Positions 5,691 to 27,282 of a stretch of DNA of 32,000 bases are shown here, piece after piece. The DNA lies in NCBI RefSeq assembly GCF_000025925.1, contig NC_014033.1, positions 3,030,001-3,062,000 of the forward strand. Reading direction: 5' to 3'. The notes beneath the pieces are model-generated. The model saw only the letters and a program-made list of their open reading frames with translations, was not told where the DNA came from and ran no database searches. The stretch is from Xylanibacter ruminicola 23. Lineage in GTDB: Bacteria > Bacteroidota > Bacteroidia > Bacteroidales > Bacteroidaceae. The translations under genes were made by a program, and so were the position numbers. Within the stretch, counting starts at the first letter, position 1. The number at the start of each line of letters is the position of its first letter.

Positions 5691-5726
5691 CGCTCAGATT
5701 TTTTAACTAATAACCGATTCAAAAAA

Positions 5727-7978: not shown

Positions 7979-7995
7979 CGTATTTTTGCAGCCGA

Positions 7996-10773: not shown

Positions 10774-10795
10774 ATAAGGTTTGAATTCTGTTACA

Positions 10796-10838
10796 AAAGG
10801 TTTCAAAGCTATCAGAAAATAGCAATGAAACCTTTTTT
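10796..10838 (+). terminator. Putative terminator after regulator gene
   Basis: Stem AAAGGTTTCA (10796-10805) / TGAAACCTTT (10826-10835) with a long 20-nt loop, running into T6. Confidence 0.45.
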
Positions 10839-10865
10839 GCGTAGCATCAAACCCCCATCAGGAAA

Positions 10866-10887
10866 GGTTTGCATAATTTTGCAAACC
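10866..10887 (+). promoter_or_regulatory. Promoter -7 box embedded in a perfect palindrome upstream of GH5/SusC operon
   Basis: GGTTTGCA-N6-TGCAAACC (8-bp arms). The spacer and right arm contain TAATTTTG (10874-10881), which matches TAnnTTTG, 32 nt upstream of the ATG at 10913. Confidence 0.45.
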
Positions 10888-10912
10888 AAATAAAACAATC
10901 AGATAATTAAAA

Positions 10913-12088: not shown

Positions 12089-12124
12089 TATATAAATTCC
12101 AATTATAATTTAACTAATTAAACA

Positions 12125-15100
12125 ATGCACATGAAGAAATCAAAAACGCTTCTCAGTCTGCTTTTTGCAGGCATGATGTGGATGCCGTTGACAGCAGGTG
12201 CCGTTACAACTAACGGTCATGCTACTTCAGTAGCCCCCGACGACCAGACCATTTCTGGTACCGTAGAGGATGCCAATGGCCCAATGATTGGAGCCACTGT
12301 TAAGGTGGTTGGTAGTTCTGCAGGAACTGTTACCGATATCGATGGTAACTTTAAGGTAAAGTGCAAACCCGGCGATATGCTCGAAATCAGCTACATCGGA
12401 TTTGCTACTAAGCAGGTAAAGGCCAAGCAGGGCATGAAAGTCCTGATGGAGGAAGACAAGACCTTGCTCGACGAGGTTGTTGTTACCGCCCTGGGTATCA
12501 AGCGCGATCGTAAGGCTCTGGGTTACGCCCTCTCTGAGGTAAAGGGCGAGGAGCTTACAAAGGCTAAGGAAACCAACGTTATCAACTCGCTTTCGGGTAA
12601 GGTTGCAGGTCTGGTAGTTCAGAATACCGCAGGTGGTGCTTCTGGTTCTACCCGTGTACTGCTGCGTGGTAACACCGAAATCAGTGGTAACAACCAGCCT
12701 CTCTACGTTATCGATGGTGTGCCCCTTGACAATACCAACTTTGGTAGCGCAGGCACTGAGGGTGGATACGACCTGGGTGATGGTATCTCAGCTATCAACC
12801 CCGATGATATCGAGAACATGACCGTACTGAAAGGTCCTGCCGCTTCGGCCCTTTATGGTAGCCGTGCATCACATGGTGTGATTCTGATTACTACCAAGAA
12901 GGCCGACAAGGATAAGATCAGCGTTGAGTATAACGGTTCGCTCACATTCGACCAGCAGCTGGCTAAGTGGGACGATATCCAGCAGGTTTATGGTATGGGT
13001 TACAGTGGTGCTTACAGCCCAACTGCTACTTCGGGTACCAACTCAAGCTGGGGTGCTAAGGCCGACGATCTGGAGATTGAATATTTCGATCACGTAAAGC
13101 GCCCATTCCTGATGTATCCTAACAATACCAGCGAGTTCTTCCGTACTGGTATGACTACCCAGAACACAGCTATCCTGTCTGTTAACTCTGGTAAGACTGG
13201 TGTTCGTTTCAGCGTTACCGATATGCGTAACAAGGATATTCTGCCTAATACACACATGAGTCGTGATAACTTCAACCTGCGTGTAAACACATCGGCAGGT
13301 CCTGTTGATCTCGACTTCACAGCCAACTACACTCGCGAGGATGTTAAGAACCGTCCTGCACTGGGCGACTCTCAGAGCAATATCGGTAAGAACCTGATGA
13401 CTTTGGCTGGTACCTACAATCAGGCTTGGCTGAAGCACTATCAGACTGAGGATGGCGACTATGCCAACTGGAATGGTAACGACCAGTATAACAAGAACCC
13501 TTATTGGGATCTGTATAAGAACGAGAACACCACTGGTAAGGATGTGTTCCGTCTTACAGGTAAGGCCATCTGGAATATCACCGATCACTTGAAGTTGCAG
13601 GGTACTATCGGTACCGATATGAACTTCATGTCGTTCCAGGACTTCATCTGCCGCACTACTCCTGGTAAGCAGGCTGGACAGCTGCAGAACCAGAAGTTCA
13701 CAAACCGCACTCTGAATGCCGAGCTGTTGGCACTCTACAACAACCAGTTTGGCGATTTCGATGTAAATGCTACCCTTGGTGGTAACATCTTCAAGGTAAA
13801 CAATAAGACTGATATCTTTACTGGTACCGACCAGCAGATGAAGGATATCATTGCTATCATGAACTATGCCGAGCAGAGCATTCAGCAGAATACTTACAAG
13901 AAGCAGATTAACTCTATCTTCGGTTCGGCTAGCGTAGGTTATCAGCACACCTACTATCTCGAGGCTACCGTACGTGGCGATAAGTCATCTACTCTGCCTA
14001 TTAATAATAATGTATATATCTATCCTTCGTTCTCAGGTAGCGTTGTGTTCTCTGAGTTCATCAAGAACAAGAGCCTGATTAACTATGGTAAGATTCGTGC
14101 TTCGTGGGCACAGGTAGGTAGCGATACCGATCCTTATCAGCTGGCGCTGAACTACACCACAGGTAAGTACTCTTACGGTGGTTATGTAATTGGTATGATT
14201 AACAACAACACCCAGCCTAACAAGGACCTGAAGCCAACCCGTACCAACAGCTTTGAGCTGGGATTGGAGATGAAATTCTTCAAGGGCCGTCTGGGTCTGG
14301 ATGTAACTTACTACAACCAGTTGTCAAAGGATCAGATTATCGGTCTGGCTTCTTCATCAACATCTGGTTATAACTATCGCCTCATCAACGCTGGTGAGAT
14401 TCAGAACAAGGGTATCGAGATTGCACTCAACGGTCGCGTGCTGCAGATCAAGGATTTCGCATGGGATGCTGGTGCAAACTTCTCAAAGAACACCAATAAG
14501 GTTAAGTCGCTCATCGACGGTATGGACTACTTCGAGCTTGAGAAGGCAACCTGGTGTGGTGTTAGCGTAGGTGCCGAGGTTGGTAAGAACTACGGTTCAA
14601 TCATCGGTAAGGACTTTAAGCGCACAGCCGACGGACAGGTAATTATCAATGCCGAGAGCGGTCTGCCAGTTGTTGACGATCAGACTCACACACTGGGTAA
14701 CGCCTCATGGGATTGGACTGGTGGTTTCTATTCTACCTTTACTTATAAGAACTTCCGCCTCTCTGCAGGCTTCGACGTTAAGGTTGGTGCCGATCTCTTC
14801 TCAATGTCAATGCGTTCGGCCTATGCTACAGGTAAAGCCAGTGGCACACTCGAGGGCCGCGAGGAGTGGTACCGCTCTGAGGAGCTGCGTAAGCAGGCTA
14901 ATATGACACTTGATGAGTGGCGTGCTGCCGGAAAGTGCGAGGGACTGATTGTTCCCGGTGTTATCGACAATGGTGATGGTACATACCGTCAGAACGATAT
15001 TGCCGTTAATCCTGAGTCGTACTGGAAGACAGCTACCGAGAATGCACCATCGATGTTTATCTACGACAACTCGTATGTAAAGTGCCGCGAAATCACCTTC

Positions 15101-15304
15101 GGTTACACATTCCCTGAGAAGTGGCTGGGTAAGACCGTGAAGGGCCTGAACGTTTCGTTCGTAGCTCGTAACCCATTCATCGTATGGAAGAACATTCCTA
15201 ACATCGATCCTGACTCTGGTTACAACACCTCAGGACTTGGTTTGGAGTATGGTTCGCTGCCCTCACGCCGCAGCTATGGTATCAATGTTAATGTTAAATT
15301 TTAA
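12125..15304 (+). CDS. SusC/RagA-family TonB-dependent outer-membrane transporter
   Basis: N-terminal carboxypeptidase-regulatory-like domain (ISGTVEDANGPMIGATVKVVGSSAGTVTDIDGNF), plug region (DEVVVTALGIKR...), 1059 aa, C-terminal aromatic residue (F). A SusD gene follows immediately. Confidence 0.9.
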   Translation: MHMKKSKTLLSLLFAGMMWMPLTAGAVTTNGHATSVAPDDQTISGTVEDANGPMIGATVKVVGSSAGTVTDIDGNFKVKCKPGDMLEISYIGFATKQVKAKQGMKVLMEEDKTLLDEVVVTALGIKRDRKALGYALSEVKGEELTKAKETNVINSLSGKVAGLVVQNTAGGASGSTRVLLRGNTEISGNNQPLYVIDGVPLDNTNFGSAGTEGGYDLGDGISAINPDDIENMTVLKGPAASALYGSRASHGVILITTKKADKDKISVEYNGSLTFDQQLAKWDDIQQVYGMGYSGAYSPTATSGTNSSWGAKADDLEIEYFDHVKRPFLMYPNNTSEFFRTGMTTQNTAILSVNSGKTGVRFSVTDMRNKDILPNTHMSRDNFNLRVNTSAGPVDLDFTANYTREDVKNRPALGDSQSNIGKNLMTLAGTYNQAWLKHYQTEDGDYANWNGNDQYNKNPYWDLYKNENTTGKDVFRLTGKAIWNITDHLKLQGTIGTDMNFMSFQDFICRTTPGKQAGQLQNQKFTNRTLNAELLALYNNQFGDFDVNATLGGNIFKVNNKTDIFTGTDQQMKDIIAIMNYAEQSIQQNTYKKQINSIFGSASVGYQHTYYLEATVRGDKSSTLPINNNVYIYPSFSGSVVFSEFIKNKSLINYGKIRASWAQVGSDTDPYQLALNYTTGKYSYGGYVIGMINNNTQPNKDLKPTRTNSFELGLEMKFFKGRLGLDVTYYNQLSKDQIIGLASSSTSGYNYRLINAGEIQNKGIEIALNGRVLQIKDFAWDAGANFSKNTNKVKSLIDGMDYFELEKATWCGVSVGAEVGKNYGSIIGKDFKRTADGQVIINAESGLPVVDDQTHTLGNASWDWTGGFYSTFTYKNFRLSAGFDVKVGADLFSMSMRSAYATGKASGTLEGREEWYRSEELRKQANMTLDEWRAAGKCEGLIVPGVIDNGDGTYRQNDIAVNPESYWKTATENAPSMFIYDNSYVKCREITFGYTFPEKWLGKTVKGLNVSFVARNPFIVWKNIPNIDPDSGYNTSGLGLEYGSLPSRRSYGINVNVKF

Positions 15305-15319
15305 TGAGTATCAGTTATT

Positions 15320-17062
15320 ATGATTACCAAATATATTAAGAAAACCCTTTTCGCTGGTATGGTTGGCTGTACCTTCCTGGCTACTGCATCTTGCAGCGAT
15401 AGTTACATGGAGAAGCTCAATACCGACGAGACCAAGGCGTCATCGATTGCTCCAAGCGCCCAGCTCACTACAGCATTGCTGCAGACCTATGGCGACTTCG
15501 GACTGATGGACACCTATCGTAGCTACATTACTGGTTTTACACAGCACTTCGCAGGTGGATGGAACGTTAGCAACTATGCTGGTAGCGTACATGCACAGGA
15601 CGATCAGATGCGCCTGATTTGGGACCAGTACTATGCTGTGGCTATCAAGAATATTGTAGATGCCATCGCAAATTCTGAGGATATGCCAAACACCAATGCC
15701 GCTCTGCGCATTCACCGTGTTTACCTCATGTCGGTTCTTACCGATACCTATGGCGATATTCCTTGTACCGAGGCTGGTTTAGGCTTTGTTAAAGGTATTT
15801 CTAATCCTAAGTACGATACTCAGGAGGAGATTTATAACTTCTTCTTCGATGAGTTGGCTGCTTGTGTAGATCAGCTTGGTACTGGCACCGATAATATTGG
15901 TGGCGACGTTACCAGTCTGTATGGCGATCCTGCAGCTTGGCGTAAGTATGCCAATGCCCTGCGCCTGCGCTTTGCTATGCGCATCAGCGATGTGAACCCT
16001 ACTAAGGCTCAGCAGGAGTTCGAGAAGGCCCTCTCGGCTAATGGCGGTTATATCGCCTCTGAGGCCGACGATGCCTACATTATCTATACCGACAGCCCCT
16101 TTACTCTCTACGACGGCTCACGCGACCTTGATTTCCGTGTAAACGCACTTGGCGAGATTCTGTATGGCCAGGATCCTACTTCGCCTACATTTATCTGCTC
16201 CACATTCTTCAATATCTTAAAGGATAACAACGACCCACGCCTTTATCGCATCTGCCGTCACTACATCAACACTAATCGTTCGGAGATTAAGCCCGACCGC
16301 GAGTGGAATATCGATGTTACCGACGAGGTTAGAGCTTATCTCGACAAGGTTGATACCTATACCGCTTGTGTACCAGGTGCTGCCTGGTGGAGCGATTGGG
16401 TAAATGCACCTGCTAACTCTGAGATTCCTACACTCGAGAAGTATGTAAAGATGTATCCCGAGGCTGGTTTCGATCAGAACAACTTCAATGCACGTATGAT
16501 TCGTCCATTCCTCTCTATCGACTTTGAGATGCCCGAATGTCCTGGTACACTCATCAACTCAGCCGAGGTAGAGTTCCTGCTGGCCGAGGCTAAGCTCAAG
16601 GGATGGAATGTTAACGGTACCGTTGAGGAGCACTTCAAGGCTGGTATCAAGGCTTCGATGGCCTGGATGAACAACCACTATCTGCAGAACAAGGATAAGA
16701 TTGCCGATGCCGATATCGATGCCTACATCAATGGTTTGATGAACGCTGGCGTGCTTACTACCAATGCTAAGGAGGCCATCAACACTCAGGCTTACATCCT
16801 GCACATGATGAACCCTGCTGAGGCTTGGGCTAACCTGCGTCGTTCCGACTATCCTGTACTGGCCGATCGTACAAAGCTGGCTATCCGTCCCGACTTTACT
16901 TACGACGATGCTAATCTGTCAACACCTAATCGCCTGCGTTACCCTATCCTGGAGAACCAGTACAACAGCGAGAACTACAAGGCTGCCATCGAGCGCATGG
17001 GTGGCAAGGACGATTGGCACAAGCGTCTCTGGTGGGACACAAGCGATATCAATGTCGAGTAA
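15320..17062 (+). CDS. SusD/RagB-family nutrient-binding outer-membrane lipoprotein
   Basis: Lipobox LATASC plus SD. Length 580 aa, positioned 15 nt after SusC. The helical TPR-like sequence is typical of SusD-like proteins. Confidence 0.85.
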   Translation: MITKYIKKTLFAGMVGCTFLATASCSDSYMEKLNTDETKASSIAPSAQLTTALLQTYGDFGLMDTYRSYITGFTQHFAGGWNVSNYAGSVHAQDDQMRLIWDQYYAVAIKNIVDAIANSEDMPNTNAALRIHRVYLMSVLTDTYGDIPCTEAGLGFVKGISNPKYDTQEEIYNFFFDELAACVDQLGTGTDNIGGDVTSLYGDPAAWRKYANALRLRFAMRISDVNPTKAQQEFEKALSANGGYIASEADDAYIIYTDSPFTLYDGSRDLDFRVNALGEILYGQDPTSPTFICSTFFNILKDNNDPRLYRICRHYINTNRSEIKPDREWNIDVTDEVRAYLDKVDTYTACVPGAAWWSDWVNAPANSEIPTLEKYVKMYPEAGFDQNNFNARMIRPFLSIDFEMPECPGTLINSAEVEFLLAEAKLKGWNVNGTVEEHFKAGIKASMAWMNNHYLQNKDKIADADIDAYINGLMNAGVLTTNAKEAINTQAYILHMMNPAEAWANLRRSDYPVLADRTKLAIRPDFTYDDANLSTPNRLRYPILENQYNSENYKAAIERMGGKDDWHKRLWWDTSDINVE

Positions 17063-17086
17063 TAATTTTAAAGAAATAATTGCATT

Positions 17087-18451
17087 ATGATTACTAAGAA
17101 TATATCAAAATATCTCGCCATGTTCTTCATGGTTTGCGGCATGGCTGCTAATACAGCTTGCACATCTGATGAGGATCCGTTCTTCACGGCTGGCGAGGAC
17201 GATTATCCCCGTATCCTGAATACGGATATCCCCGAAGGTAAGGGTGGCGAGCCTGGCGTGCTCATGACCATCGAGCGCACCCAGAACTTCCAGTTCGACG
17301 TAATGGTTACCCCCGTTAAGTACACCACCGTTACCTGGCTTATCGACGATGAGCAGGTAGCCGAAGGTCTTTCTATCGACACACCTGTACTGGCTGGCGA
17401 GCACATCGTAAAGATTGTAGCAGCTACCACTAAGGGGCTTGAAACCTCACGTACCTGCAAGCTCGTTGTTCTGCCTGCCGAGGGCGATCCCTCACTGGCC
17501 AGCGACGGCAAATCACGTTGGCTCACTATCGGTAGCACCAAAACTATCGATTGCACCAATGCTACTAACGTAACCAAGGTGTTCGTGGGCAAGCAGGAGG
17601 CTAGCAACGTATCGTTTGCAAACGGAAAACTTACCTTTACTGTTCCCAGCATGGCCGAGGGCGAGTACACTGTTGTTATCGAGGCCGATGGCGCACGTTA
17701 TGGTTGCGGCGTATTCACAGTCAGCAACACCGAGTATGTTGATCCAGGCGTAAAGGAGACTGTACTCTGGGAGGGTAGCACCGAGATTAACTGGGGCGAT
17801 GCAAACGTTACTGTCTCAGCTGCCGATATGGCTAATGTGCCTGTAGGCGCTACCATCCGTTTGGTTTACGAAATGGCCGATATGCCTGATGGTTATCATG
17901 CCCTGCGTATCACCACACCTTGGTGGGGCGATAATGCCGAGGATCAGATCGTAGCTCAGTTCGACCTCACAGCCGACACACCAAACCCATTCGAGTTCAC
18001 CTACACCGAAGCCAACAAGGCAATCGTAGATGAGCGTGGAGGTATGCTCATCGTAGGTTATGGTTACAAGCTTACAAAAGTGGTTGCTTTAGAAAATGTA
18101 GCTCCTGCCGAGACCACCCTTTGGGAAGGCGGCATCGAGATTAACTGGGGCGATGCAAACGTTACTGTCTCAGCTGCCGATATGGCTAATGTGCCTGTTG
18201 GCGCTACTGTGCATGTTTACTACCAGATGGCCGATATGCCTGATGGCTATCATGCCCTGCGTATCACCACACCTTGGTGGGGCGATAATGCCGAGGATCA
18301 GATTGTAGCTCAGTTCGATCTCACAGCCGACACCGCTAACCCATACGACTTTACCTACACCGAAGCCAACAAGGCAATTGTAGATGAGCGTGGCGGTATG
18401 CTCCTTGTAGGCTACGGTTACAAGCTTACCAAGGTAACATTCTCGAAGTAA
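17087..18451 (+). CDS. SusE/F-position surface lipoprotein with Ig-like domains and two tandem 118-aa putative glycan-binding modules
   Basis: Lipobox NTAC followed by the acidic stretch TSDEDP. It occupies the third position after SusC/SusD. Its C-terminal half is an internal tandem repeat. Confidence 0.7.
   Translation: MITKNISKYLAMFFMVCGMAANTACTSDEDPFFTAGEDDYPRILNTDIPEGKGGEPGVLMTIERTQNFQFDVMVTPVKYTTVTWLIDDEQVAEGLSIDTPVLAGEHIVKIVAATTKGLETSRTCKLVVLPAEGDPSLASDGKSRWLTIGSTKTIDCTNATNVTKVFVGKQEASNVSFANGKLTFTVPSMAEGEYTVVIEADGARYGCGVFTVSNTEYVDPGVKETVLWEGSTEINWGDANVTVSAADMANVPVGATIRLVYEMADMPDGYHALRITTPWWGDNAEDQIVAQFDLTADTPNPFEFTYTEANKAIVDERGGMLIVGYGYKLTKVVALENVAPAETTLWEGGIEINWGDANVTVSAADMANVPVGATVHVYYQMADMPDGYHALRITTPWWGDNAEDQIVAQFDLTADTANPYDFTYTEANKAIVDERGGMLLVGYGYKLTKVTFSK
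17756..18448 (+). repeat. In-frame tandem duplication (2 x 354/339 nt) inside the SusE/F-like gene
   Basis: Unit 1 is 17756-18109 and unit 2 is 18110-18448, a period of 354 nt (118 codons). There are identical runs of 62 nt and 56 nt (for example GAGATTAACTGGGGCGATGCAAACGTTACTGTCTCAGCTGCCGATATGGCTAATGTGCCTGT). Confidence 0.95.
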
Positions 18452-18860: not shown

Positions 18861-18949
18861 GTACTTATTAGATATGACTCCAGTACGCCTTAGGAAGTAC
18901 TGCAGTCCTCTTACTAAAGGACTCGAGTACTCCTACGGAAGGATTTTCA

Positions 18950-19999
18950 TTACAACTGATGGCTATGTATATATGCTTTGACAGCTCGCTGTACCTCAGT
19001 ACTTTTTGTTTTGTTGGTTATCAGTTGGTAGATCGGTATTACATCGTCGCCAGTCAGCAGTACGAGCGATAGATTATCGTTATTTGCTTGGTTCCACCAT
19101 TCAGCAATAGCTTTTGATGATTTCTCTTTGCTGAGAGGTAATTGAGCGAATTCAGTTGAAAGCCTTTGCGTGTTGCCACCATGACATTGTACTGATAGTG
19201 CGCCACCTTTTGTAGCTTTCGAATCGATAATTTTCCAATAAACGGGGTTATATACCTCGTTCATACGACGGAACATACTACATAAGAAGCAATCGTCATC
19301 GTTTGTATTTTCTTTCAGGCCAGAACGATAGAGTGATAGGATATTTATTCCCATAAGTGCACATTTGAGTACATGGGTGCCAAATCGTTCTACAATACGT
19401 TCAGCGCTTTCGTTTTCAAGTGCTTGTTTGAAATCATCAGTCAGGATACGGTCAATATATCGTTCAGTCGGTATCAGCAGTTTCTTTTCATATACGGCGT
19501 ATCTGTCCATATACATCATAAACGAGTAGTTATCGCTTCGCTCCTTGCTTTCCTTAAACAAAGGATTGCTTGTAAAAGTACCAGCGAAATATACGTCGCC
19601 TGGTTCGCCCTCGAGTGTAAATCCTTCTGCTCTACGCAAACCATCCAAGAAAGTCCATGAATACCCAATGCCACTTACCAGACTTCCTGTTCCGCTACTG
19701 GCCACAATAGATGTCATCTCGTCTGGTTCTATTTTGTTCAGGTCGATCACATTCTCGCGCAGGCATTCGTTGCTAAGATATGGCCCCGTTATATCGTAAC
19801 CTGAGCCCAGATATTCTTTTGCAGCAAGAGGCATATCGGCCGATAGGTTGGTGATGGTTTCCTCTTCGGGTACAGCAACTTCGCCCTTGTTAGTAGGGTC
19901 GTTATTATCTACGATATCTTCATTATTACTGCTGCAAGAGACGAGAGAGAAGGCAGTAAGCGCAATACATATTGTTCTCCTGAAATTAATTGTAATCAT
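18950..19999 (-). CDS. MACPF (perforin-like) domain lipoprotein, BSAP-like candidate pore-forming toxin
   Basis: Lipobox FSLVSC followed by SSNNEDIVDNND. The MACPF entry motif is YLGSGYDITG. The signature-like stretch FGTHVLKCALMGI compares with [YW]G[TS]H[FY]x6GG. The C-terminal ...VIPIYQLI is typical of bacterial MACPFs. Confidence 0.7.
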   Translation of the reverse strand: MITINFRRTICIALTAFSLVSCSSNNEDIVDNNDPTNKGEVAVPEEETITNLSADMPLAAKEYLGSGYDITGPYLSNECLRENVIDLNKIEPDEMTSIVASSGTGSLVSGIGYSWTFLDGLRRAEGFTLEGEPGDVYFAGTFTSNPLFKESKERSDNYSFMMYMDRYAVYEKKLLIPTERYIDRILTDDFKQALENESAERIVERFGTHVLKCALMGINILSLYRSGLKENTNDDDCFLCSMFRRMNEVYNPVYWKIIDSKATKGGALSVQCHGGNTQRLSTEFAQLPLSKEKSSKAIAEWWNQANNDNLSLVLLTGDDVIPIYQLITNKTKSTEVQRAVKAYIHSHQL

Positions 20000-20022
20000 A
20001 CCTTATATAATTGGTTATAGTG

Positions 20023-20030
20023 CAAAAGTA
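20023..20030 (-). promoter_or_regulatory. -7 box (TACTTTTG) for MACPF gene
   Basis: The reverse complement of 20023-20030 is TACTTTTG, 23 nt upstream of the start codon. Two ATCCCTAT direct repeats and an AGGGA-AA-TCCCT inverted repeat lie just upstream (20061-20095). Confidence 0.45.
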
Positions 20031-20108
20031 CTAATTTCTGTCAATACACAAAAAATAATATCCCTATAATTAATGAGGGAAATCCCTATTATTCTATTAT
20101 CAAGCGTG

Positions 20109-20990
20109 CTATATTCTAAAATACTTTAGCAGTTCTTTATACATATCTTGGGCTGTAAGACAAGTATCTGTAAGGTAGCCGTTAATATGTCCCCATTCTC
20201 GCAGACCTCTATAATAGAATATCTTCAAATCATCTGTAATAATGAATGGAACAATATTATTGGCTAGGCACTCCTTAAACATCAGCAATCGACCAACGCG
20301 ACCATTACCATCTTGGAAAGGATGAATCTGTTCAAGCCGCACATGGAAGTCAAGAATATCTTCGAATGATTTCTTGCCTTTATGATTATATTCATCCAAT
20401 AGGGTTTTCAACTGCTTGTGTACATCCTCTGGTGCACAAGTATCCTGTCCACCAACCTCGTTTGGTAATCGTTTATAATCGCCAACGGCAAACCAATCCT
20501 TACGACTATCAGAAGTTCCTGATTTCAGCAACAGATGCAGATGCTTTACCAGATTTTCTGTCAGTTTATCCTCTGTATGATCGATGATATAATCGATACA
20601 ACGGAAGTGATTAACTGTCTCTACAACGTCATCCACATTTATAGCGCTGTCAGTAACACCAATCGTATTAGTTTCAAAAATATATCGAGTCTGATCGTGG
20701 GTAAGCTTGCTACCTTCTATATGATTAGAGTTATAAGTAAGGTCTATCTGGGTGCGATGATAAATACCACCTTTTAGTTTCGATGCCTTCTGCTCTCTCA
20801 ACGCCTTAAGAAGTGGCGATACCTTTTTATTTTTCTCACCACGCTTGGGCAAAGCAGCATCTGCAGGAATATTCCAAGTCTTTCCTGTTAAGAAAGCCCC
20901 CTCTATCTTCCCTTGGGCACAATAATTTCGGGCCGTACGCTCAGAAATACCATACTTTTCTGCAAACTTACTAACTGATATATACTCCAT
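20109..20990 (-). CDS. Fic-family AMPylase with N-terminal HTH DNA-binding domain and intramolecular inhibitory motif (class II-like)
   Basis: Fic motif HPFQDGNGRVGR matches HxFx(D/E)GNGRxxR. The inhibitory motif SNHIEG matches (S/T)xxxE(G/N). The N-terminus ISVSKFAEKYGISERTARNYCAQGKI is a MerR/excisionase-type HTH. Confidence 0.85.
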   Translation of the reverse strand: MEYISVSKFAEKYGISERTARNYCAQGKIEGAFLTGKTWNIPADAALPKRGEKNKKVSPLLKALREQKASKLKGGIYHRTQIDLTYNSNHIEGSKLTHDQTRYIFETNTIGVTDSAINVDDVVETVNHFRCIDYIIDHTEDKLTENLVKHLHLLLKSGTSDSRKDWFAVGDYKRLPNEVGGQDTCAPEDVHKQLKTLLDEYNHKGKKSFEDILDFHVRLEQIHPFQDGNGRVGRLLMFKECLANNIVPFIITDDLKIFYYRGLREWGHINGYLTDTCLTAQDMYKELLKYFRI

Positions 20991-21001
20991 GTTTCAACGC
21001 T

Positions 21002-21068
21002 ATCGGCAAGTTTTTACGCCAATTCACGCCACAAATATATAACTTTTTGCCGATACCGGCAAGTTTTT
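21002..21068 (-). promoter_or_regulatory. HTH-Fic promoter (-7 TATATTTG) flanked by operator-like repeats
   Basis: The reverse complement of 21032-21039 is TATATTTG. A perfect palindrome TTGCCG-ATAC-CGGCAA lies at 21047-21062. The direct repeat CGGCAAGTTTTT occurs at 21004-21015 and 21057-21068. Confidence 0.5.
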
Positions 21069-21160
21069 GAAACAAAAACCACTAAATACTTCACTTTTTA
21101 ACTCAATGAATCATGGAGTCGGTTCCATGATTTCCAGTAAATTCGACAGAACGGCGTTTT

Positions 21161-21336
21161 TTGTTCCCAAGGTGGGAATGGATTGTTCCCTAACTGGGAA
21201 TAAAATGTTCCCTAGTTGGGAATAAAGTGTTCCAAAGAAGGGAATATCCCCTAAGGAATAGGTCGAACACCTTGTAGGCATAATCTGAATCACTTGTAGA
21301 CATAATCCGAATGACTCATAGAAATAACTCGAATAC
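21161..21336. repeat. Array of eight phased 22-bp tandem units (five palindromic TGTTCCC-N-TGGGAATA type, three CTTGTAGNCATAATCNGAATNA type)
   Basis: Unit starts are 21161, 21183, 21205, 21227, 21249, 21271, 21293 and 21315, an exact 22-bp register. The first four units each contain the inverted repeat TTCC(C)/GGGAA. Confidence 0.85.
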
Positions 21337-21370
21337 AATAACCTATTTTATATATAGTTTATCGAATTTT

Positions 21371-21677
21371 TCTCTCATCTCTCAACAAATCGCTCAAAAC
21401 CCGCATAAACACTAGGGATTCGAGCGATGAGAGATTCTAAAAATCCCTCCCTAATCTCTCACTAATCTCTCACCCGATCCCTCCAGACACACACACCTCA
21501 GCCAGATTTTAATATTTAAAGAAAAAACCGAAAATAATAGCCAAAAAACTTGCAAAACTTCCTGTGAGGGTTTCCTGAGAGATTGTTGAGAGATTAGGGA
21601 GAGATTCCAAAAATCTCTCACCCATCTCAAATCCTTTGTACACGGGCGTTTCGAGAGATTTCTTGAGAGATGAGAGA
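21371..21677. repeat. Element R2: 307-bp paralogue of R1 with all words switched to TGAGAGATT/AATCTCTCA
   Basis: The 29-nt terminal inverted repeat, 21371-21399 / 21649-21677, matches at 25 of 29 positions. Hairpins at 21428-21461 and 21599-21619. The unpaired cores shared with R1 are GCATAAAYACTRGGGAT and AAATSCTTTGTA. Confidence 0.8.
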
Positions 21678-21700
21678 TTTTTTAATATGATATAACAAAA

Positions 21701-21862
21701 GAAAGCCGCAACCCTGAAAAGGTTGCGGCTCTATTTATATAAGAGGTGTATCGCTTATGCGAATGGATTCTCTGTTGGGTAGTAATCGCCCTTGGGGAAG
21801 TTGTAGTCGATCTCGTCAACGGGGATACCCATGTACTTGAGAACCTCCCAGAGATACTTACC
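21701..21862 (-). pseudogene. Orphan duplicate of the terminator plus last ~36 codons of the isomerase-like gene (copy A of a direct repeat)
   Basis: Aligns with 25737-25893 at a constant offset of 4031 nt in the coding part. There is a 67-nt perfect block (21748-21814 = 25779-25845), then 5 mismatches in 48 nt. Similarity stops abruptly at 21862/25893. Confidence 0.85.
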
Positions 21863-21897: not shown

Positions 21898-21925
21898 TTT
21901 GTTTCAGAAAAAATCGTTAACTTTG
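21898..21925 (+). promoter_or_regulatory. Candidate promoter of the kinase module (-7 TAACTTTG)
   Basis: TAACTTTG at 21918-21925 and TTTG at 21898-21901, 46 nt upstream of the ATG at 21972. Confidence 0.45.
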
Positions 21926-21971: not shown

Positions 21972-22526
21972 ATGAAACAAACAGAATTACTTTGCAAAAC
22001 TATTGAGCAAGCGCTTCATCAGGAGATACGCACGCCAAAAGATTTCGACCAGCTGAGAGAACGCATCTTTCTGCGATTACATCAGATGCTTAGTGCCACA
22101 ACCCTTAAACGTGTGTGGGGCTACTTAGACAATGAGGGCGAACCAAGCGTGAGAACACTCGATACCTTAGCCCAGTTCATTGGTTACAAGAACTATCAGG
22201 CGTTTTGCATGCACTCTCCTGCTGATGGCATGGAGCCAAGTAATCTGGCCATGAATCGCCATCTGGATGTAAATGCCGACCTTGCTGTGGGAGAATGCTT
22301 AACACTCTATTGGCTACCTGACAGAGTGTGTCATATCCGCTATGAGGGCGATATGCGTTTTGTGGTTACAGCATCAGAGAACACTCGTCTGAAAGCAAAC
22401 GATACCTTTTGCTGTAGTCTGATTATCGAAGGTGAGCCACTATATCTTAGTCAGTTGCAACAGGGCGATCAGGAACAAACCAATTATGTTTGTGGCAAAC
22501 GGGGAGGCATTAGATATGAGCGATGA
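21972..22526 (+). CDS. Hypothetical 184-aa protein, possible N-terminal HTH-like region; translationally coupled to the kinase
   Basis: ATG start with a promoter-like box upstream. The N-terminal helical segment ...SATTLKRVWGYLDNEGEPSVRTLDTLAQFIGYKNYQAFC resembles HTH modules seen at N-termini of Bacteroidetes signalling proteins (from memory). The stop (22524-22526) overlaps the kinase ATG (22516) by 11 nt. Confidence 0.55.
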   Translation: MKQTELLCKTIEQALHQEIRTPKDFDQLRERIFLRLHQMLSATTLKRVWGYLDNEGEPSVRTLDTLAQFIGYKNYQAFCMHSPADGMEPSNLAMNRHLDVNADLAVGECLTLYWLPDRVCHIRYEGDMRFVVTASENTRLKANDTFCCSLIIEGEPLYLSQLQQGDQEQTNYVCGKRGGIRYER

Positions 22527-24741
22527 TGCTTCAAGCTACATAGTAAGTGATTTCGAGGGACTCAGCTCCACCTTCTCCGAGATGGTTGAATTGCCATCTA
22601 CGGGCTATTGTCGTTTGTACAAAGCCAAACGCTATGGGCGATGGTTTCTGCTCAAATGTCTGAAGCAGGAACTATCATCCGATACCGCCTATCAACAGTT
22701 GCTTCGCAAGGAATTCGAGATTATGATGCGCTTGCAGCATCCATCTATCATGCAAGCCATTGGTATGGAGGATGTTTTGATAGCTGACGGGCATTACGAA
22801 CGATGCCTCATAGCCGAATGGATTGATGGCAAGACGCTGGCTCAATATCTTGAGGCCAATCCCAGTCGTAGCGATCGCCAACGCATAGCTATCGATTTGG
22901 CAGAGGCTTTGGCCTACATTCATCACCAACAAGTGGTACATCGCGATCTGAAGCCCTCAAACATCATGATTACCTACAACGGCAGTTATGTGAAGATTAT
23001 CGACTTCGGACTAGCTGATACCGATAGTCATGCCATACTGAAACAACCTGCTGGCACATTGAAGTATATGGCTCCAGAGCAAGCCACAAAAGCTCTACCA
23101 GATGTTCGTAACGATATCTATTCGCTGGGAGTCATACTTCTGGAGATGGATATATATAAAAAGGTGGCTGAGCGATGTCTACGCCCCATCCATCAACGCT
23201 ATCAGAATATGGACGATCTGCTTGCCGCCCTTCATCAGCAGCGCAAGTGGCATTTCAAGCTTATGGCATCAGCCATGATAGCCCTGGTTGTCATCTTTGC
23301 TTTGATAGCAAAAGTGAATGCGATAAGTCATAAAGCCTCTGATTTAGAGAAACATACGGCTGAGCTTAATTTTCAGGTGAAAGTGCTGAACCACGAGATT
23401 ATTGGCTTCGAGGACCCTGAGGCAAAGCAAAAATGCATCAGCCATTGGGATTATGATCACGATGGTGAACTGAGCTATCAAGAAGCAGCCTCAGTAAAGT
23501 CGCTTGGCGATGTGTTTACAAAGGACACGCTGTTGCGATCGTTCCCAGAACTGGAACACTTTACTGGTCTTAACGAAATTGATGCTTGTGCCTTTTGGGA
23601 TTGCACCCACCTGGAGTCAATCCGCATACCTCGAACGGTACGTTTTATCCGCCAGAGTGCCTTTCGCCATACAGGTCTGCAGATGATAACCATCCCCAGT
23701 AGTGTCGTAGCTATAGGCGACCATATACTGGAAGAGTGTCCTGAGCTTGAAACAGTCATCTTCGAATCAGTATTACCCAACACCAACGATGGTGCTCATC
23801 ATCTGGTTGACTGCCCCAAACTCTCTGCTATCTTTGTGCCAGAGTTCTATATGACAGAAACGAATGAGAAGAAATCTTGGCAGAGTCTCAAACCATATAT
23901 CCATAAGTATATAGAGTTTCGCGATCCGGCAGTTAAGTCCGTCTGTGTTAGTCATTGGGATAGTAATGGCGATGGCGAATTGTCTATAGACGAGGCTATG
24001 GCTGTTAACTCGCTTGGTGGTGCTTTTTCTGGAAATACGGCTATACGCAGCTTTGATGAGTTGCGCTATTTCACAGGCTTGAAAGAGATAGAGGCAAATA
24101 CTTTTAACGGTTGTTTAAATCTAAAGTCTGTACAACTGCCTCGCTCTGTAGAAACGCTTGGCGAGAATGCCTTTCTGAAATGCGACTTTAACGCGTTTTA
24201 CATCCCATCTGGCGTCACTCATATTGCCTCTACAGCCTTGGGTGAAAACCATCATCTGTGTAAGGTAGAAATAAGTGCCGATAATCCCGTTTATGATAGT
24301 CGCGAAGATTGCAATGCCATTATAGAAACGGCTACCAATCAGATGGTTACAGGTAGTGCTACAGCCTTTATACCCAATAGCGTAACGAGTCTCAGCGACG
24401 AATGCTTCAACTGGTTTGATCGCGATGAATTGGTCATCCCTTCTCAGCTAACCCATATAGGTACTTGGGCCTTGACCTGTATCTTCCAACGGATATATTG
24501 TATGTCGGACGTACCCCCATTTTATCGACCAGATACTCGCGAGTCCTTTTGGGAGCATCTGCCAGAAATCTATATTCCTTATGGCTCTACAGAAGCCTAT
24601 TGCCATGCAGAAGGTTGGAAGCTATTAACACATCGTCTTCATGAATTCCCAGCTAAACCAGCACCCGTAACAACAGATTTTTCATACTATTTTAAAACTT
24701 GGACCAATTTGGACCAATTAAGTTTCCTGAATTTCGATTAA
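22516..24741 (+). CDS. Transmembrane Hanks-type Ser/Thr protein kinase with extracytoplasmic EF-hand-like loops and BspA-type leucine-rich repeats
   Basis: Kinase motifs are the VAIK-like LLKCLK, HRDLKPSN, DFG and YMAPE. TM helix LMASAMIALVVIFALIAKV lies at about 23263-23316. The two DxDxDGxLxxxE loops are DYDHDGELSYQE (23449-23484) and DSNGDGELSIDE (23959-23994). Each loop is followed by LRR_5-like units (F..C..L.SI.IP.SV..I...AF). Confidence 0.8.
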   Translation: MSDDASSYIVSDFEGLSSTFSEMVELPSTGYCRLYKAKRYGRWFLLKCLKQELSSDTAYQQLLRKEFEIMMRLQHPSIMQAIGMEDVLIADGHYERCLIAEWIDGKTLAQYLEANPSRSDRQRIAIDLAEALAYIHHQQVVHRDLKPSNIMITYNGSYVKIIDFGLADTDSHAILKQPAGTLKYMAPEQATKALPDVRNDIYSLGVILLEMDIYKKVAERCLRPIHQRYQNMDDLLAALHQQRKWHFKLMASAMIALVVIFALIAKVNAISHKASDLEKHTAELNFQVKVLNHEIIGFEDPEAKQKCISHWDYDHDGELSYQEAASVKSLGDVFTKDTLLRSFPELEHFTGLNEIDACAFWDCTHLESIRIPRTVRFIRQSAFRHTGLQMITIPSSVVAIGDHILEECPELETVIFESVLPNTNDGAHHLVDCPKLSAIFVPEFYMTETNEKKSWQSLKPYIHKYIEFRDPAVKSVCVSHWDSNGDGELSIDEAMAVNSLGGAFSGNTAIRSFDELRYFTGLKEIEANTFNGCLNLKSVQLPRSVETLGENAFLKCDFNAFYIPSGVTHIASTALGENHHLCKVEISADNPVYDSREDCNAIIETATNQMVTGSATAFIPNSVTSLSDECFNWFDRDELVIPSQLTHIGTWALTCIFQRIYCMSDVPPFYRPDTRESFWEHLPEIYIPYGSTEAYCHAEGWKLLTHRLHEFPAKPAPVTTDFSYYFKTWTNLDQLSFLNFD

Positions 24742-24799: not shown

Positions 24800-25711
24800 A
24801 TGAAAACAAAATTCATGTCAGTTTCGATGAGTTTACTCATCGCAGGTTTCACATTGTGCGCTTGTACAGAAGGTCTTGGTGGTGTAGGTGACAACCCAAT
24901 TACTCCAGAGACTCCAACTACTCCTGATGAGCCAGAGACACCAACAGAGATTAAGGGTATTCTTTCTGAGATTTCGGTTGAATCTGAGGGCAATAACGGC
25001 GTTCTTGCTTTCACTTATGGTGATGATGGTAAGGTTACAAAAGCTGCTTATAAAAGCGTAGATCGATTTACAGGTGATTCTTACGAAGGATTATCATGCA
25101 CCTTTACCTATGAAACTGATAAAATAACCGTAAAGGCCAAAAGAGACGATAATGTAGAGACTAAGGTCTATACCCTTACCGATGGTGTTGTTACAAAATA
25201 TGCAGATGATTATGGCTACGATGAGTTTACCTATAAGGATGGTAAACTGATTGGTTTCAAGGCCTGGGAGAAAAATGAAGAGTCAGGTGAAATGGAAACT
25301 GATGAATTATTTGATTTTTCTTGGAATGAAAATGTTATTGCTAGTTACGAAAGATATGAACTGAATGACCAAGAAGAAAAAGAAGATGTAAATAATTACA
25401 CCGTAACCTATGGTACAGTTAAGGCTGGCGTTCTTGCTAATATCTTCTTCTATGGTGGTGGAGTCTTTGAGCTTCCTTTCTATGTAGAGGATTTGGCTGA
25501 ATCAGCTCCTATCTTCGACAAACTTGGCGCAATGCCTGAGTATCTGCCTGAGAAGTTGGTTAGAACTTGGAAAGAAGAAGGAAATGATGTCACAAGAACC
25601 ATTACTGCAAAATACACCTTGGATAGCAACAACCTTGTTACTAAGGTCGTTGTCAAGGTTGTTGAAGGCGAAAATACCGAAGAAACAACTTACAACCTTA
25701 AGTGGAAGTAA
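24800..25711 (+). CDS. Hypothetical lipoprotein with Pro/Thr-rich linker and repeated beta-hairpin (YD-like) motifs
   Basis: The signal/lipobox is LIAGFTLCAC and the linker is NPITPETPTTPDEPETPTE. The repeated patterns are FTYGDDGKVTK, YTLTDGVVTKY, FTYKDGKLIGF and KYTLDSNNLVTKV. Confidence 0.6.
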   Translation: MKTKFMSVSMSLLIAGFTLCACTEGLGGVGDNPITPETPTTPDEPETPTEIKGILSEISVESEGNNGVLAFTYGDDGKVTKAAYKSVDRFTGDSYEGLSCTFTYETDKITVKAKRDDNVETKVYTLTDGVVTKYADDYGYDEFTYKDGKLIGFKAWEKNEESGEMETDELFDFSWNENVIASYERYELNDQEEKEDVNNYTVTYGTVKAGVLANIFFYGGGVFELPFYVEDLAESAPIFDKLGAMPEYLPEKLVRTWKEEGNDVTRTITAKYTLDSNNLVTKVVVKVVEGENTEETTYNLKWK

Positions 25712-25736
25712 TCCTATCACAATTTATATAAATCAA

Positions 25737-25770
25737 GAAAGCCGCAACCTTGAAAGTTGCGGCTTTATTA
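25737..25770. terminator. Bidirectional hairpin terminator between lipoprotein gene and isomerase-like gene (copy B)
   Basis: A 9-bp stem, AGCCGCAAC (25740-25748) / GTTGCGGCT (25756-25764), flanked by an A-run and a T-run. Confidence 0.55.
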
Positions 25771-25785
25771 TTTAGAATGTATCGC

Positions 25786-27282
25786 TTATGCGAATGGATT
25801 CTCTGTTGGGTAGTAATCGCCCTTGGGGAAGTTGTAGTCGATCTCCTCAACGGGGATGCCCATGTACTTGAGAATCTCCCACAGGTACTTACCAGCGTGA
25901 TCGAACATCACAGCGCAGTGGTGTGGGTAGTGCTTCTCGATGAGCACGTGACGATAGAAACGGCTCATGTTCTTAACACCGAAGATACCGATAGAACCGA
26001 ATGAGCGTGTAGCTACAGGAATAACCTCACCCTGAGCGATGTAAGCGCGGAGCTTGGTGTCGGCTGTGCTCTGCAGACGATAGATAGTAGCCTTGCCTGG
26101 CTTGATGTCGCCCTCGAGAGTACCGTTTGTTACCTCTACAGGCAGAGCGCGTGCCATGATGCGCTGGAAGCACATGCTGCAGTTGCAAACCTTAGAAGAA
26201 GCGGTGTTACCACAGTGGAAGCCCATGAAGATCTCCTTGTCTGTGTACTCGTCGCACAGGAACTTCTTGCCCTTGATGCTCTCTTCGTACATATCGTTAG
26301 GAACGGTGTTGTTGATATCGAGCAACGTAACGGCATCCTCTGTGATGCAAGTACCGATGAACTCAGACAGTGTTCCGTAGATATCAACCTCGCAGCTAAC
26401 GGGGATACCGCGGCTGGTGAGACGGCTGTTTACGTAGCAAGGAACGAAACCAAACATGGTCTGGAATGCAGGCCAGCACTTGGTGGTGAGTGATACGAAC
26501 TGGCGGCAGCCCTTGTGAGCCTCGATCCAGTCGGTCAGAGTGAGCTCATACTGAGCGAGCTTAGGCAGAACAGAAGGAATCTTGTTGCCAGCACCCAGCT
26601 CATTAGCCATATCCTTCACTACATCGTCGATACGTGGATCGCCCTGATGCTTCTGGAACGACTCGAGCAGGTCGAGCTCTGAGTTCTCCTCGATTTCTAC
26701 GTCGAGATCATACAGGGCACGGATAGGAGCGTTACAAGCCAGGAAATTGTTTGGACGAGGACCGAAGCTGATAATCTTCAGGTTCTGCAGACCAACGATA
26801 GCGCGAGCGATGGGCAGGAACTCGTGGATGAGCTCAGCGCAGTGGTCAGCATCACCAACTGGCTCCTCTGGGATATAAGCACGAGTCTTACGCAGAGACA
26901 GAGCGTGGCTGGCATTCAGCATACCACAGTAAGCATCACCACGACCATCAATCAGGTCGTTCTGAGTTTCCTCGGCAGCAGCACAGAACATAGCTGGGCC
27001 ATTGAAATACTTAGCCAGCATGGTCTCAGAAATCTCAGGACCGAAGTTACCAAGATATACACAGAGTGCATTACATCCTGCCTTATTGATATCCTCGAGG
27101 GCCTGCTGCATGTGGATTTCGCTCTCAACAATGCAGATAGGGCACTCGTAGATGCCATCCTTACCGAATTTCTTCTCATACGCAGCGATAACAGCCTTAC
27201 GACGGTTAACAGCTAATGACTCAGGAAAACAGTCGCGAGATACAGCGACGATTCCAACTTTAATTTTAGGTACGTTGTTCAT
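25786..27282 (-). CDS. L-fucose/L-arabinose isomerase-family protein (sugar isomerase-like, exact substrate unknown)
   Basis: A 498-aa cytosolic protein with ATG start and strong core-like codon usage. The overall sequence recalls the fucose-isomerase-like family, but I cannot cite a diagnostic motif. Confidence 0.5.
   Translation of the reverse strand: MNNVPKIKVGIVAVSRDCFPESLAVNRRKAVIAAYEKKFGKDGIYECPICIVESEIHMQQALEDINKAGCNALCVYLGNFGPEISETMLAKYFNGPAMFCAAAEETQNDLIDGRGDAYCGMLNASHALSLRKTRAYIPEEPVGDADHCAELIHEFLPIARAIVGLQNLKIISFGPRPNNFLACNAPIRALYDLDVEIEENSELDLLESFQKHQGDPRIDDVVKDMANELGAGNKIPSVLPKLAQYELTLTDWIEAHKGCRQFVSLTTKCWPAFQTMFGFVPCYVNSRLTSRGIPVSCEVDIYGTLSEFIGTCITEDAVTLLDINNTVPNDMYEESIKGKKFLCDEYTDKEIFMGFHCGNTASSKVCNCSMCFQRIMARALPVEVTNGTLEGDIKPGKATIYRLQSTADTKLRAYIAQGEVIPVATRSFGSIGIFGVKNMSRFYRHVLIEKHYPHHCAVMFDHAGKYLWEILKYMGIPVEEIDYNFPKGDYYPTENPFA

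Follow-up and report, generated by a model that had tools for sequence, protein, structure and literature searches.

A Hanks kinase of Xylanibacter ruminicola with a predicted periplasmic sensor belongs to a large, unstudied Bacteroidales family marked by a co-encoded partner

The DNA analyzed here (the window: 32,000 nt of Xylanibacter ruminicola 23) encodes a leucine-rich-repeat (LRR) kinase from a large, unstudied Bacteroidales family of kinases, nearly always encoded beside the same unannotated protein of 185 residues. The kinase gene is the downstream half of this two-gene unit. Among the explanations considered, we lean, with modest confidence, towards a bitopic inner-membrane Hanks kinase with a periplasmic sensor which signals via its co-encoded partner. 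No published account of a bacterial protein combining Pkinase and LRR_5 was found in the literature, and the database names given to the LRR-kinase proteins are generic only.

The open frame of the kinase spans positions 22432..24741 on the + strand. The gene callers chose the ATG at 22486, which yields a gene at 22486..24741 and a receptor-type Hanks Ser/Thr kinase of 751 aa, while an earlier note on this DNA started it at the ATG at 22516 (741 aa); both candidate ATGs precede the first conserved residue. The cytoplasmic kinase domain (aa 30-250; 22573..23235, + strand) matches Pfam model Pkinase PF00069 with an E-value of 2.8e-37 and a score of 129 bits (cut-off 31.7), which places the earlier note's Hanks kinase call above the curated threshold. 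The motifs it had listed, i.e., LLKCLK, HRDLKPSN (22939-22962), DFG (23002-23010) and APE (23071-23079), all lie on the + strand where it had placed them, with the catalytic lysine K57 encoded at 22654-22656. Among solved kinases, Mycobacterium tuberculosis PknB is the closest both in sequence (5e-22) and in fold (Foldseek, probability 1.0).

The sole hydrophobic segment of the protein lies at aa 257-277 (23254..23316, + strand), where the Kyte-Doolittle 19-residue maximum reaches 2.55, with the remainder of the protein at or below 1.6. Within the first 40 residues, hydropathy over 12 residues peaks at 0.63, i.e., there is no N-terminal hydrophobic segment. From hydropathy and the positive-inside rule, the single transmembrane (TM) helix is predicted to be a signal anchor that keeps the N-terminus inside. 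Across 100 family members, the 15-residue flanks of this helix carry a mean of 4.62 Lys and Arg residues on the N side versus 2.34 on the C side, the N side being higher in 90 of them and lower in none. By the positive-inside rule, the predicted orientation with the N-terminus in and the C-terminal LRR part outside the cytoplasm thus holds up and, given the host is Gram-negative, the sensor would be periplasmic. The stretch after the helix, previously described as coiled-coil-like, corresponds to a periplasmic helical stalk (aa 278-305; 23317..23400, + strand) which is continuous with the TM helix in the AF2 model, where an unbroken helix runs over residues 242-301.

Beyond the stalk, the ectodomain consists of two tandem modules on the + strand, as had been noticed from the sequence: residues 306-417 and 476-587 are 46% identical (E-value of 4e-31). 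Module 1 (aa 306-475; 23401..23910) comprises a helix-loop-helix with calcium loop DYDHDGELSYQE (23449-23484) followed by LRR_5 repeats, and module 2 (aa 476-751; 23911..24738) has calcium loop DSNGDGELSIDE (23959-23994) and then a longer array of LRR_5 repeats, closed by a C-terminal cap. LRR_5 PF13306 matches three stretches with an E-value of 2.5e-32 and 111.9 bits against a cut-off of 27.7, and the ectodomain, modelled by AF2 with a pLDDT of 85-93, matches the solved BspA-type LRR structures 4fs7 (sequence match at 5e-25, fold match at 8e-9), 4gt6 (Foldseek E-value of about 1e-8), 4fdw and 4fd0, so that the repeats are indeed of BspA type.

The proposed EF-hands stand in part. Both EF-type loops have 12 residues fitting positions 1-12 of PROSITE PS00018, with helices flanking each of them in the AF2 model (helix-loop-helix elements at 311-335 and 481-505), and the 12-residue pattern has exactly two matches in each of 17 family members. 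However, position 13 is Ala, which fails the pattern, the Pfam EF-hand models remain below their cut-offs (20.1 versus 25.4 bits for EF-hand_1, 18.8 versus 25 bits for EF-hand_6), and there is a single unpaired loop per module, instead of the usual EF-hand pair. Calcium binding by these loops is a prediction from their residue pattern. The overall order proposed earlier, i.e., Hanks kinase, one TM helix, stalk and twice a calcium loop with BspA-type LRRs, is reproduced in Pfam, alignment and AF2 results. Related kinases also have, in their vicinity, genes for secreted LRR_5 proteins that bear a calcium loop of this kind.

The LRR-kinase architecture is found in more than 120 protein clusters (90% identity) from about 37 species-level genomes, all of rumen or gut Prevotellaceae. 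Hence, the architecture is not rare: it is common in rumen Prevotellaceae, though uncharacterised there. More broadly, a scan of 185,579 species genomes brought up 415 stretches with relatives of the kinase. Within the best 80 of these 415 loci, to which the pairing counts refer, a homologue of the partner adjoins the kinase in 68, either upstream or downstream and often overlapping it. When neighbouring ORFs were clustered, only the kinase, at 82 loci, and the partner, at 70, proved recurrent, and no conserved third gene, such as a PP2C phosphatase or an FHA protein, was present in the kinase neighbourhoods examined.

The partner also adjoins short relatives of the kinase, of roughly 415-450 aa and without LRRs, whose ectodomain is a coiled coil with a small helical domain; Pfam finds nothing in this ectodomain, except a mini-LRR_5 in locus L054. 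Given the partner adjoins even these non-LRR relatives, the conserved unit is the kinase plus the partner, which is kept across Prevotellaceae, Muribaculaceae and other Bacteroidales. The ectodomain, in turn, varies among lineages: its LRR_5 form is limited to one rumen Prevotellaceae clade, which makes the LRR sensor a recombining addition specific to its lineage. The X. ruminicola gene carries the marks of the module: the P-loop region of its product is of the AKRYGRW-LLK type, there is a single TM helix, and a gene of the partner family adjoins it.

The partner gene (21972..22526, + strand, 184 aa), which the earlier note overlooked, has a stop that overlaps the start of the kinase. At 47 nt upstream of its ATG lies TAACTTTG (21918..21925, + strand), a putative -7 promoter element which fits the Bacteroides -7 consensus, TAnnTTTG, and which may act as the promoter of the partner gene. 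The soluble protein it encodes has no match in Pfam, NCBIfam or PADLOC, and its family comprises 3768 cluster representatives without annotation. AF2 models it as five helices followed by a small beta-barrel (pLDDT of 87), a fold with no significant Foldseek match (best E-values of 0.27 in the PDB and 0.04 in BFVD); the PDB profile search gave nothing below an E-value of 0.7. A helix-turn-helix or DNA-binding role was considered on account of the five N-terminal helices and the XRE-like motif S-x-TTLKRVWGY, and stands as a mere possibility that the searches did not support: Pfam over 32 members of the partner family yielded a single HTH_3 match (E-value of 0.19), hhalign of the partner profile against the N-terminal sequences of SinR and P22 C2 a probability of 0.1, and the TP901-1 CI N-terminal domain a Foldseek E-value of only 1.5.

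In the explanation we lean towards, the periplasmic part of roughly 470 residues would have each EF-type loop capping a BspA-type LRR_5 solenoid, and the calcium-stabilised LRR surface would bind a ligand, presumably present in the periplasm. Binding would alter the packing of the stalk and TM helix, or dimerisation, and lead to autophosphorylation of the kinase. The co-encoded partner would then be phosphorylated by the kinase, or scaffold it, and carry the output; its invariant residues S41, T44, S90, S135 and T138 are candidate phosphorylation sites.

The gene pairing, tight, in either order and kept over family-level divergence, is equally expected of a signalling pair and of an active receptor kinase whose partner is a regulator, chaperone or localisation factor, with the targets lying elsewhere, e.g., in envelope biogenesis or among polysaccharide-utilisation regulators. 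This second explanation, which we consider unlikely, draws on the absence of a recognisable phospho-acceptor or output domain in the partner and on the fact that Hanks kinases typically have many substrates. It also draws on one LRR-kinase subclade without an adjacent partner, which includes loci L001 and L018 with full 5-kb flanks, several other members being near contig ends. The kinase gene of X. ruminicola moreover adjoins a PUL and a hybrid regulator, yet this neighbourhood is not kept around the kinase in other genomes.

A direct repeat of ~175 bp flanks a cassette of partner, kinase and a lipoprotein-like ORF. Copy A (21690..21862) holds a terminator hairpin (21702-21732) and a defunct duplicate of the final ~36 codons of an isomerase-like gene, and copy B (25726..25893) a terminator hairpin (25738-25766) and the genuine 3' end of that gene (25786..27282, - strand). 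The lipoprotein-like ORF (24800..25711, + strand, 303 aa, weak DUF4595 match) begins 58 nt past the kinase stop with no intervening terminator, and is syntenic only within X. ruminicola. The earlier note had the kinase on an apparently acquired segment. This applies chiefly to a 2.8-kb island next to it (18941-21703), which carries the MACPF-like and Fic genes and is missing from strain D31d. The kinase gene itself has ordinary GC and occupies the same site in both strains, although its cassette is bracketed by the direct repeat.

When tRNA or integrase marks of an island were sought, no tRNAs were found within the window. Strains free of the cassette were sought through the TIG and isomerase proteins that flank it, which led to nothing but the same genome (GCA_019973335.1) and contigs too short for a verdict. 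A regulatory RNA in the 1-kb spacer upstream was likewise considered, but the Rfam matches there were all to plant miRNA precursors and below threshold, and are due to a 102-nt inverted repeat at 21371-21677.

In comparison with strain D31d, the kinase presents a dS of 0.61 over aa 601-751 versus 0.006 over aa 1-255, with no difference at all over aa 256-475, and a mosaic (recombinant) tract lies in module 2 at aa 538-715 (24097..24630, + strand). The ectodomain is thus the evolving part of the protein. Such mosaicism of the sensor between strains would be expected of an envelope sensor against phages or competitors, in which the LRR part detects a phage or toxin component, and kinase and partner trigger a protective or abortive response. 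The dN/dS of 0.26 in the tract, however, suggests purifying rather than diversifying selection.

The defence role is also favoured by the non-conserved, accessory contexts of the kinase-partner module, by the strain-specific Fic gene (PDC-S04, 1e-111) inserted beside it, and by the candidate PDC-S01 (AAA_14 plus DUF4143; 7-9 of 115 flanking proteins), AbiEi/AbiEii, mad3/mad8, IetA and GmrSD among the flanking genes; yet, by raw count, only about one in ten flanking genes is defence-like. Although the kinase domain matches the defence kinases PD-T4-6 and mad6 at 1e-39 to 1e-41, the PADLOC kinases score no better than the generic Pkinase model and cover the catalytic domain only, the partner has no counterpart in PADLOC, and a nuclease or toxin effector is absent. 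Hence, we regard a defence sensor as distinctly improbable.

As the earlier note had pointed out, the glycine-rich loop is degenerate (STGYCRLYKAKRYG): the kinase has a non-glycine P-loop, LPSTGYCRLYKAKRYGRW, and subdomain I reads LPSTGYCR instead of GxGxxG. This loss is family-wide, the glycine-rich loop being replaced by the consensus LPSxGYCxLxKAKRYGRW, and some short relatives perhaps have no Gly in their P-loops at all. ATP binding may therefore be atypical. On the other hand, 17 homologues of 46-73% identity all retain K57, E76, H152-R153-D154, K156, N159, D173-F174-G175, P197-E198, D210 and R238, and the VAVK Lys and RRE Glu of PknB are the counterparts of K57 and E76, respectively. Judging by these residues, the protein is probably catalytically active. 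A pseudokinase or scaffold, in which the degenerate P-loop abolishes catalysis and the protein mainly serves to tether an adhesin or organiser with periplasmic LRRs to the inner membrane, would account for the altered loop, for the PknB alignment beginning only past it and for the low AF2 confidence in the catalytic and activation segment (pLDDT below 50 at residues 148-191, in a model built from an MSA of only 17 sequences), yet it is the least probable explanation, given that pseudokinases usually lose catalytic residues outside the P-loop, here invariant together with the APE motif, and that strict conservation of the substitute P-loop suggests it has a function.

Among known systems, the PASTA kinases (PknB of M. 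tuberculosis, PrkC of Bacillus subtilis and StkP of Streptococcus pneumoniae) share the layout of cytoplasmic kinase, TM helix and extracytoplasmic sensor. The X. ruminicola kinase differs in having no PASTA repeats (no Pfam PASTA match), a periplasmic sensor of calcium loops and LRR_5 repeats, a non-glycine P-loop and a co-encoded partner. With the PASTA kinase model PknB_PASTA_kin (NF033483), to which the kinase domain alone aligns, it reaches 128.6 bits where the cut-off is 450. In a review of bacterial Hanks kinases, the sensors listed are PASTA and beta-propeller domains, with no mention of LRRs or of Bacteroidetes, in line with the earlier remark that well-studied receptor kinases of this type mostly carry PASTA-like sensors.

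The logic of an LRR solenoid, one TM helix and an RD-type Ser/Thr kinase is shared with plant and animal LRR receptor kinases (FLS2, BRI1; IRAK/Pelle). The likeness drawn in the earlier note is an analogy only: the domain order is reversed as in the PknB-type layout, with the kinase N-terminal and inside, the LRRs C-terminal and outside, and no signal peptide; type I topology and plant-type LRRs are both absent, the repeats being of the BspA/LRR_5 class and the best kinase match the bacterial PknB. It is thus a case of convergence, not of membership. BspA-type proteins (Tannerella forsythia BspA, TpLRR, 4fs7, 4gt6, 4fdw and 4fd0) share the LRR_5 repeat class, but they are secreted or lie at the surface, carry signal peptides and have no kinase; none of the solved structures includes a calcium-loop cap.

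A TM receptor kinase encoded beside a cognate soluble partner or substrate is represented by PknH-EmbR of M. tuberculosis. EmbR is an FHA and winged-helix regulator, whereas the X. ruminicola partner has no recognisable domain, and the sensors are unrelated. Membership in the defence systems known to PADLOC was considered and rejected, as the matches involve the kinase domain only: PD-T4-6, Stk2, MADS mad6 and BREX PglW match aa 36-255 alone, score like the generic Pkinase model, and have companions with no match in the partner or the neighbours.

A wider proposal, which we put forward tentatively and hold to be possible rather than probable, is that the pair is one instance of an undescribed Bacteroidales-wide signalling system made of a bitopic Hanks kinase with a non-glycine P-loop, a dedicated 185-residue partner of a new fold, possibly nucleic-acid-binding, and swappable periplasmic sensor heads. 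The rumen head would be a calcium-capped BspA-type LRR drawn from the secreted repertoire and reshuffled by recombination, reading periplasmic glycans or foreign proteins.

Accounts of signalling in Bacteroidales usually centre on hybrid two-component systems, pairs of ECF sigma and anti-sigma factors and SusR-type regulators and, to our knowledge, Hanks kinases are essentially unstudied in this order. The kinase and its partner offer a concrete and testable way into such signalling in bacteria that dominate the rumen and gut. The LRR kinase would provide a well-defined example of a BspA-type LRR working in the periplasm, not at the cell surface, and would be an independently evolved bacterial counterpart of eukaryotic LRR receptor kinases.

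The open reading frame scan places the kinase ORF at 22432..24741 (+), in which ATG 22516, the start taken by the earlier note, yields 741 aa and ATG 22486 yields 751 aa. The latter is used in public gene calls, GCA_019973335.1 among them, and kinase residue numbers are counted from it. The Pfam Pkinase match (2.8e-37) is well over its cut-off and bears out the kinase domain call. The sole hydrophobic segment is aa 257-277, where the 19-residue hydropathy reaches 2.55 (never above 1.6 elsewhere), and the hydropathy scan presents no N-terminal signal-like segment. Among 100 family members, mean K+R is 4.62 over the 15 residues N-terminal to the TM helix and 2.34 over the 15 C-terminal to it, the N side being higher in 90 and lower in none. 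Given the positive-inside rule and the ATP need of a kinase, the kinase domain of this Gram-negative Bacteroidota protein is predicted to be cytoplasmic and its C-terminal part periplasmic, in agreement with the one TM helix and non-cytoplasmic LRRs proposed earlier. In the AF2 model (mean pLDDT 73; ectodomain 85-93; residues 148-191 below 50), residues 242-301 are one unbroken helix, comprising TM helix and stalk.

The ectodomain was described as two similar modules (aa 306-475 and 476-751), and this is correct, since residues 306-417 share 46% identity with residues 476-587 (E 4e-31). Each module opens with a helix-loop-helix in the AF2 model; module 1 has the loop DYDHDGELSYQE and module 2 the loop DSNGDGELSIDE. 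At positions 1-12, the two conform to the PROSITE EF-hand pattern; position 13 is Ala. The loop pattern occurs exactly twice in 17/17 aligned homologues. Calcium may be bound at these loops. The EF-hand claim holds as far as the 12-residue pattern in each module, but the Pfam EF-hand models fall just under their cut-offs and there is one loop per module, not a pair. The BspA-type LRR call is confirmed by a Pfam LRR_5 match well over cut-off (2.5e-32) and a sequence match to a solved BspA-type protein, 4fs7 (5e-25). The fold matches of the repeats are 4fs7, 4gt6, 4fdw and 4fd0, none of which covers the calcium-loop cap.

Genes for secreted LRR_5 proteins with a signal peptide and the same loop type lie near related kinases, as at 1271-3574 of locus L019 and 1065-3539 of locus L051. 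Given these neighbours, the sensor head looks borrowed from the organism's own secreted LRR repertoire. LRR_5 proteins account for a raw share of 11/115 genes flanking related kinase-partner modules (loci L003, L005, L019, L051, L064 and others). Some of the flanking secreted ones have dockerin-type or EF-type loops.

In comparison with the second X. ruminicola strain, D31d, the kinase presents one difference in residues 1-507, identity over residues 256-475, and a dS of 0.006 over residues 1-255. Residues 538-715 (window 24097-24630) are strongly diverged, and aa 601-751 present a dS of 0.61 and a dN/dS of 0.26. This marks residues 538-715 as a recombination tract that does not extend beyond module 2's distal LRR. 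The mosaic is compatible with a sensor surface swapped among alleles or paralogues under continued purifying selection.

The best 120 protein clusters (90% identity) are all Pkinase+LRR_5 end to end, at 45-99% identity. Scanning a single genome for each species yielded 415 stretches encoding kinase relatives, the top one being Xylanibacter (Prevotella) ruminicola D31d, at 94%. Among the best 80 of these 415 loci, about 37 have the LRR ectodomain, all in Prevotellaceae-type genomes and MAGs from the rumen or gut. The others, from Prevotellaceae, Muribaculaceae and other Bacteroidales, encode proteins of ~415-450 aa whose similarity to the window kinase is limited to the kinase domain and TM helix. 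Their extracytoplasmic part combines a coiled coil with a small helical domain and is unmatched in Pfam, except for a mini-LRR_5 in locus L054. The LRR-kinase proteins are named "leucine-rich repeat protein", "protein kinase domain-containing protein" or "hypothetical" in their sources, and the literature search found no description of a Pkinase+LRR_5 kinase. A review of bacterial Hanks kinases names sensors of the PASTA and beta-propeller types, with no mention of LRR or Bacteroidetes; a rumen metatranscriptome study reports a generic Ser/Thr kinase (K12132) as up-regulated, Prevotellaceae included, with molecular detail absent. As to the novelty suggested earlier, the architecture is common in rumen Prevotellaceae, though uncharacterised.

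The partner, a 184-aa protein, is encoded upstream at 21972..22526 (+), and its gene extends 41 nt into that of the kinase (11 nt with the start at 22516). Its homologues (32-62% identity) directly adjoin the kinase in 68 of the best 80 of the 415 loci, mostly upstream and, in one clade, directly downstream, and are found beside LRR-less kinases too. Clustering of every ORF up to 5 kb from the kinase leaves two recurrent proteins across loci, the kinase itself (82 loci) and the partner (70 loci); PP2C phosphatase and FHA genes do not recur. Hence the kinase and partner are the conserved unit, and the ectodomain, which is swapped, is its interchangeable part. Clustered at 50%, the partner family numbers 3768 representatives at an E limit of 1e-3 and 348 at a limit of 1e-30; nearly every one is a stand-alone protein 180-205 aa long. 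The partner has no match in Pfam, NCBIfam or PADLOC, and its AF2 model (pLDDT 87), with five helices in residues 3-81 and a beta-barrel in residues 97-183, has no significant structural neighbour in PDB or BFVD. An XRE-type HTH was suspected and is not supported.

We lean, by a modest degree, towards a PknB-style bitopic receptor kinase: a periplasmic, calcium-stabilised LRR head would bind a ligand, whose signal would reach the kinase domain through the stalk and TM helix, with the co-encoded partner as the kinase's dedicated substrate or adaptor, and thereby the output. That the partner is instead a regulator, and not the output, is unlikely; the gene adjacency would suit either role.

The pair is flanked on one side by a polysaccharide-utilisation locus (PUL) with GH5, SusC/SusD, a TIG protein, an AraC-type hybrid regulator and GH36, and on the other by a fucose-isomerase-like gene, DUF3667 and LeuRS. 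The complete PUL (7966-18451, upstream of the kinase; GH36 at 5688-7910) is unlinked to the kinase module in other genomes, and its Reg_prop/Y_Y_Y/AraC regulator has no recognisable histidine-kinase match in the domain scan. The TIG gene (17087..18451) contains an 82-nt direct repeat (18000-18081 / 18354-18435, 90% identical, 354 nt apart), which indicates an internal domain duplication; the D31d comparison presents the same paralogous cross-matches within this gene.

Region 18941-21703, of low GC (0.38-0.40), is a strain-specific insertion relative to D31d. It encodes a MACPF-like protein (18950..19999, -) and an HTH+Fic protein (20109..20990, -), the latter matching SoFic at 4e-20 and PDC-S04, a candidate defence family of PADLOC, at 1e-111. 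The 1-kb spacer upstream of the partner holds a 102-nt imperfect inverted repeat (21371-21472 / 21576-21677, 75% complementary), a long hairpin matching no known RNA family, with only sub-threshold plant-miRNA-precursor matches in Rfam. The two copies of a ~175-bp direct repeat (21690-21862 and 25726-25893, 93-96% identical, spaced ~4.03 kb) enclose the partner and kinase together with a lipoprotein-like ORF. The latter (24800-25711, 303 aa, GC ~0.38-0.40, weak DUF4595 match 1.3e-3) begins 58 nt past the kinase stop with no intervening terminator, and is syntenic within X. ruminicola only, the gap in D31d being ~380 nt. Both repeat copies, also present in D31d, have a bidirectional terminator hairpin, and copy A (21690-21862) duplicates, as dead sequence, the final ~36 codons of the isomerase-like gene. 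The repeat is probably a scar left when the 4-kb cassette arrived by an old insertion or duplication.

In other species, the module is found in unrelated contexts. About one in ten flanking genes is defence-like (PDC-S01-type AAA_14/DUF4143 ATPases, AbiE), and the AAA_14+DUF4143 ATPases are 7-9/115, both raw shares; AbiEi/AbiEii, mad3/mad8, IetA and GmrSD also occur. Given the insertion, the repeat scar, these contexts and the defence-like flanks, the "acquired segment" of the earlier note is a reasonable term for the neighbourhood, and an older acquisition of the cassette is plausible, but the pair itself has ordinary GC (~0.46) and the same site in D31d. An envelope anti-phage sensor would be in keeping with such flanks; we consider it improbable.

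The kinase alignment (window protein plus 16 homologues, 46-73% identity) keeps K57, E76, H152-R153-D154, K156, N159, D173-F174-G175, P197-E198, D210 and R238 invariant. The glycine-rich loop, noted earlier as degenerate, is indeed replaced: the family-invariant LPSxGYCxLxKAKRYGRW stands in place of GxGxxG. The nearest solved sequence, M. tuberculosis PknB (~5e-22), also matched in fold by Foldseek, aligns only from past the P-loop. These results show an intact catalytic machinery with an unusual nucleotide-clamping loop, and the kinase is predicted to be active; a pseudokinase scaffold, to which the replaced loop might point, is least probable of all beside the invariant catalytic residues.

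NCBIfam matches are at kinase-domain level only, and the top model, the PknB PASTA-kinase, scores 128.6 bits against a cut-off of 450; hence, although alike in working, this is not a PASTA kinase. The kinase-partner pair resembles PknH-EmbR in gene pairing, yet is not a member. The likeness to plant LRR-RLKs, raised earlier as plant/animal receptor-kinase logic, exists but is convergence only, given the opposite polarity and different LRR class. The kinase is a member of a real, widespread and uncharacterised Bacteroidales receptor-kinase family, in which the LRR_5 sensor is lineage-specific and the conserved partner had previously gone unnoticed.
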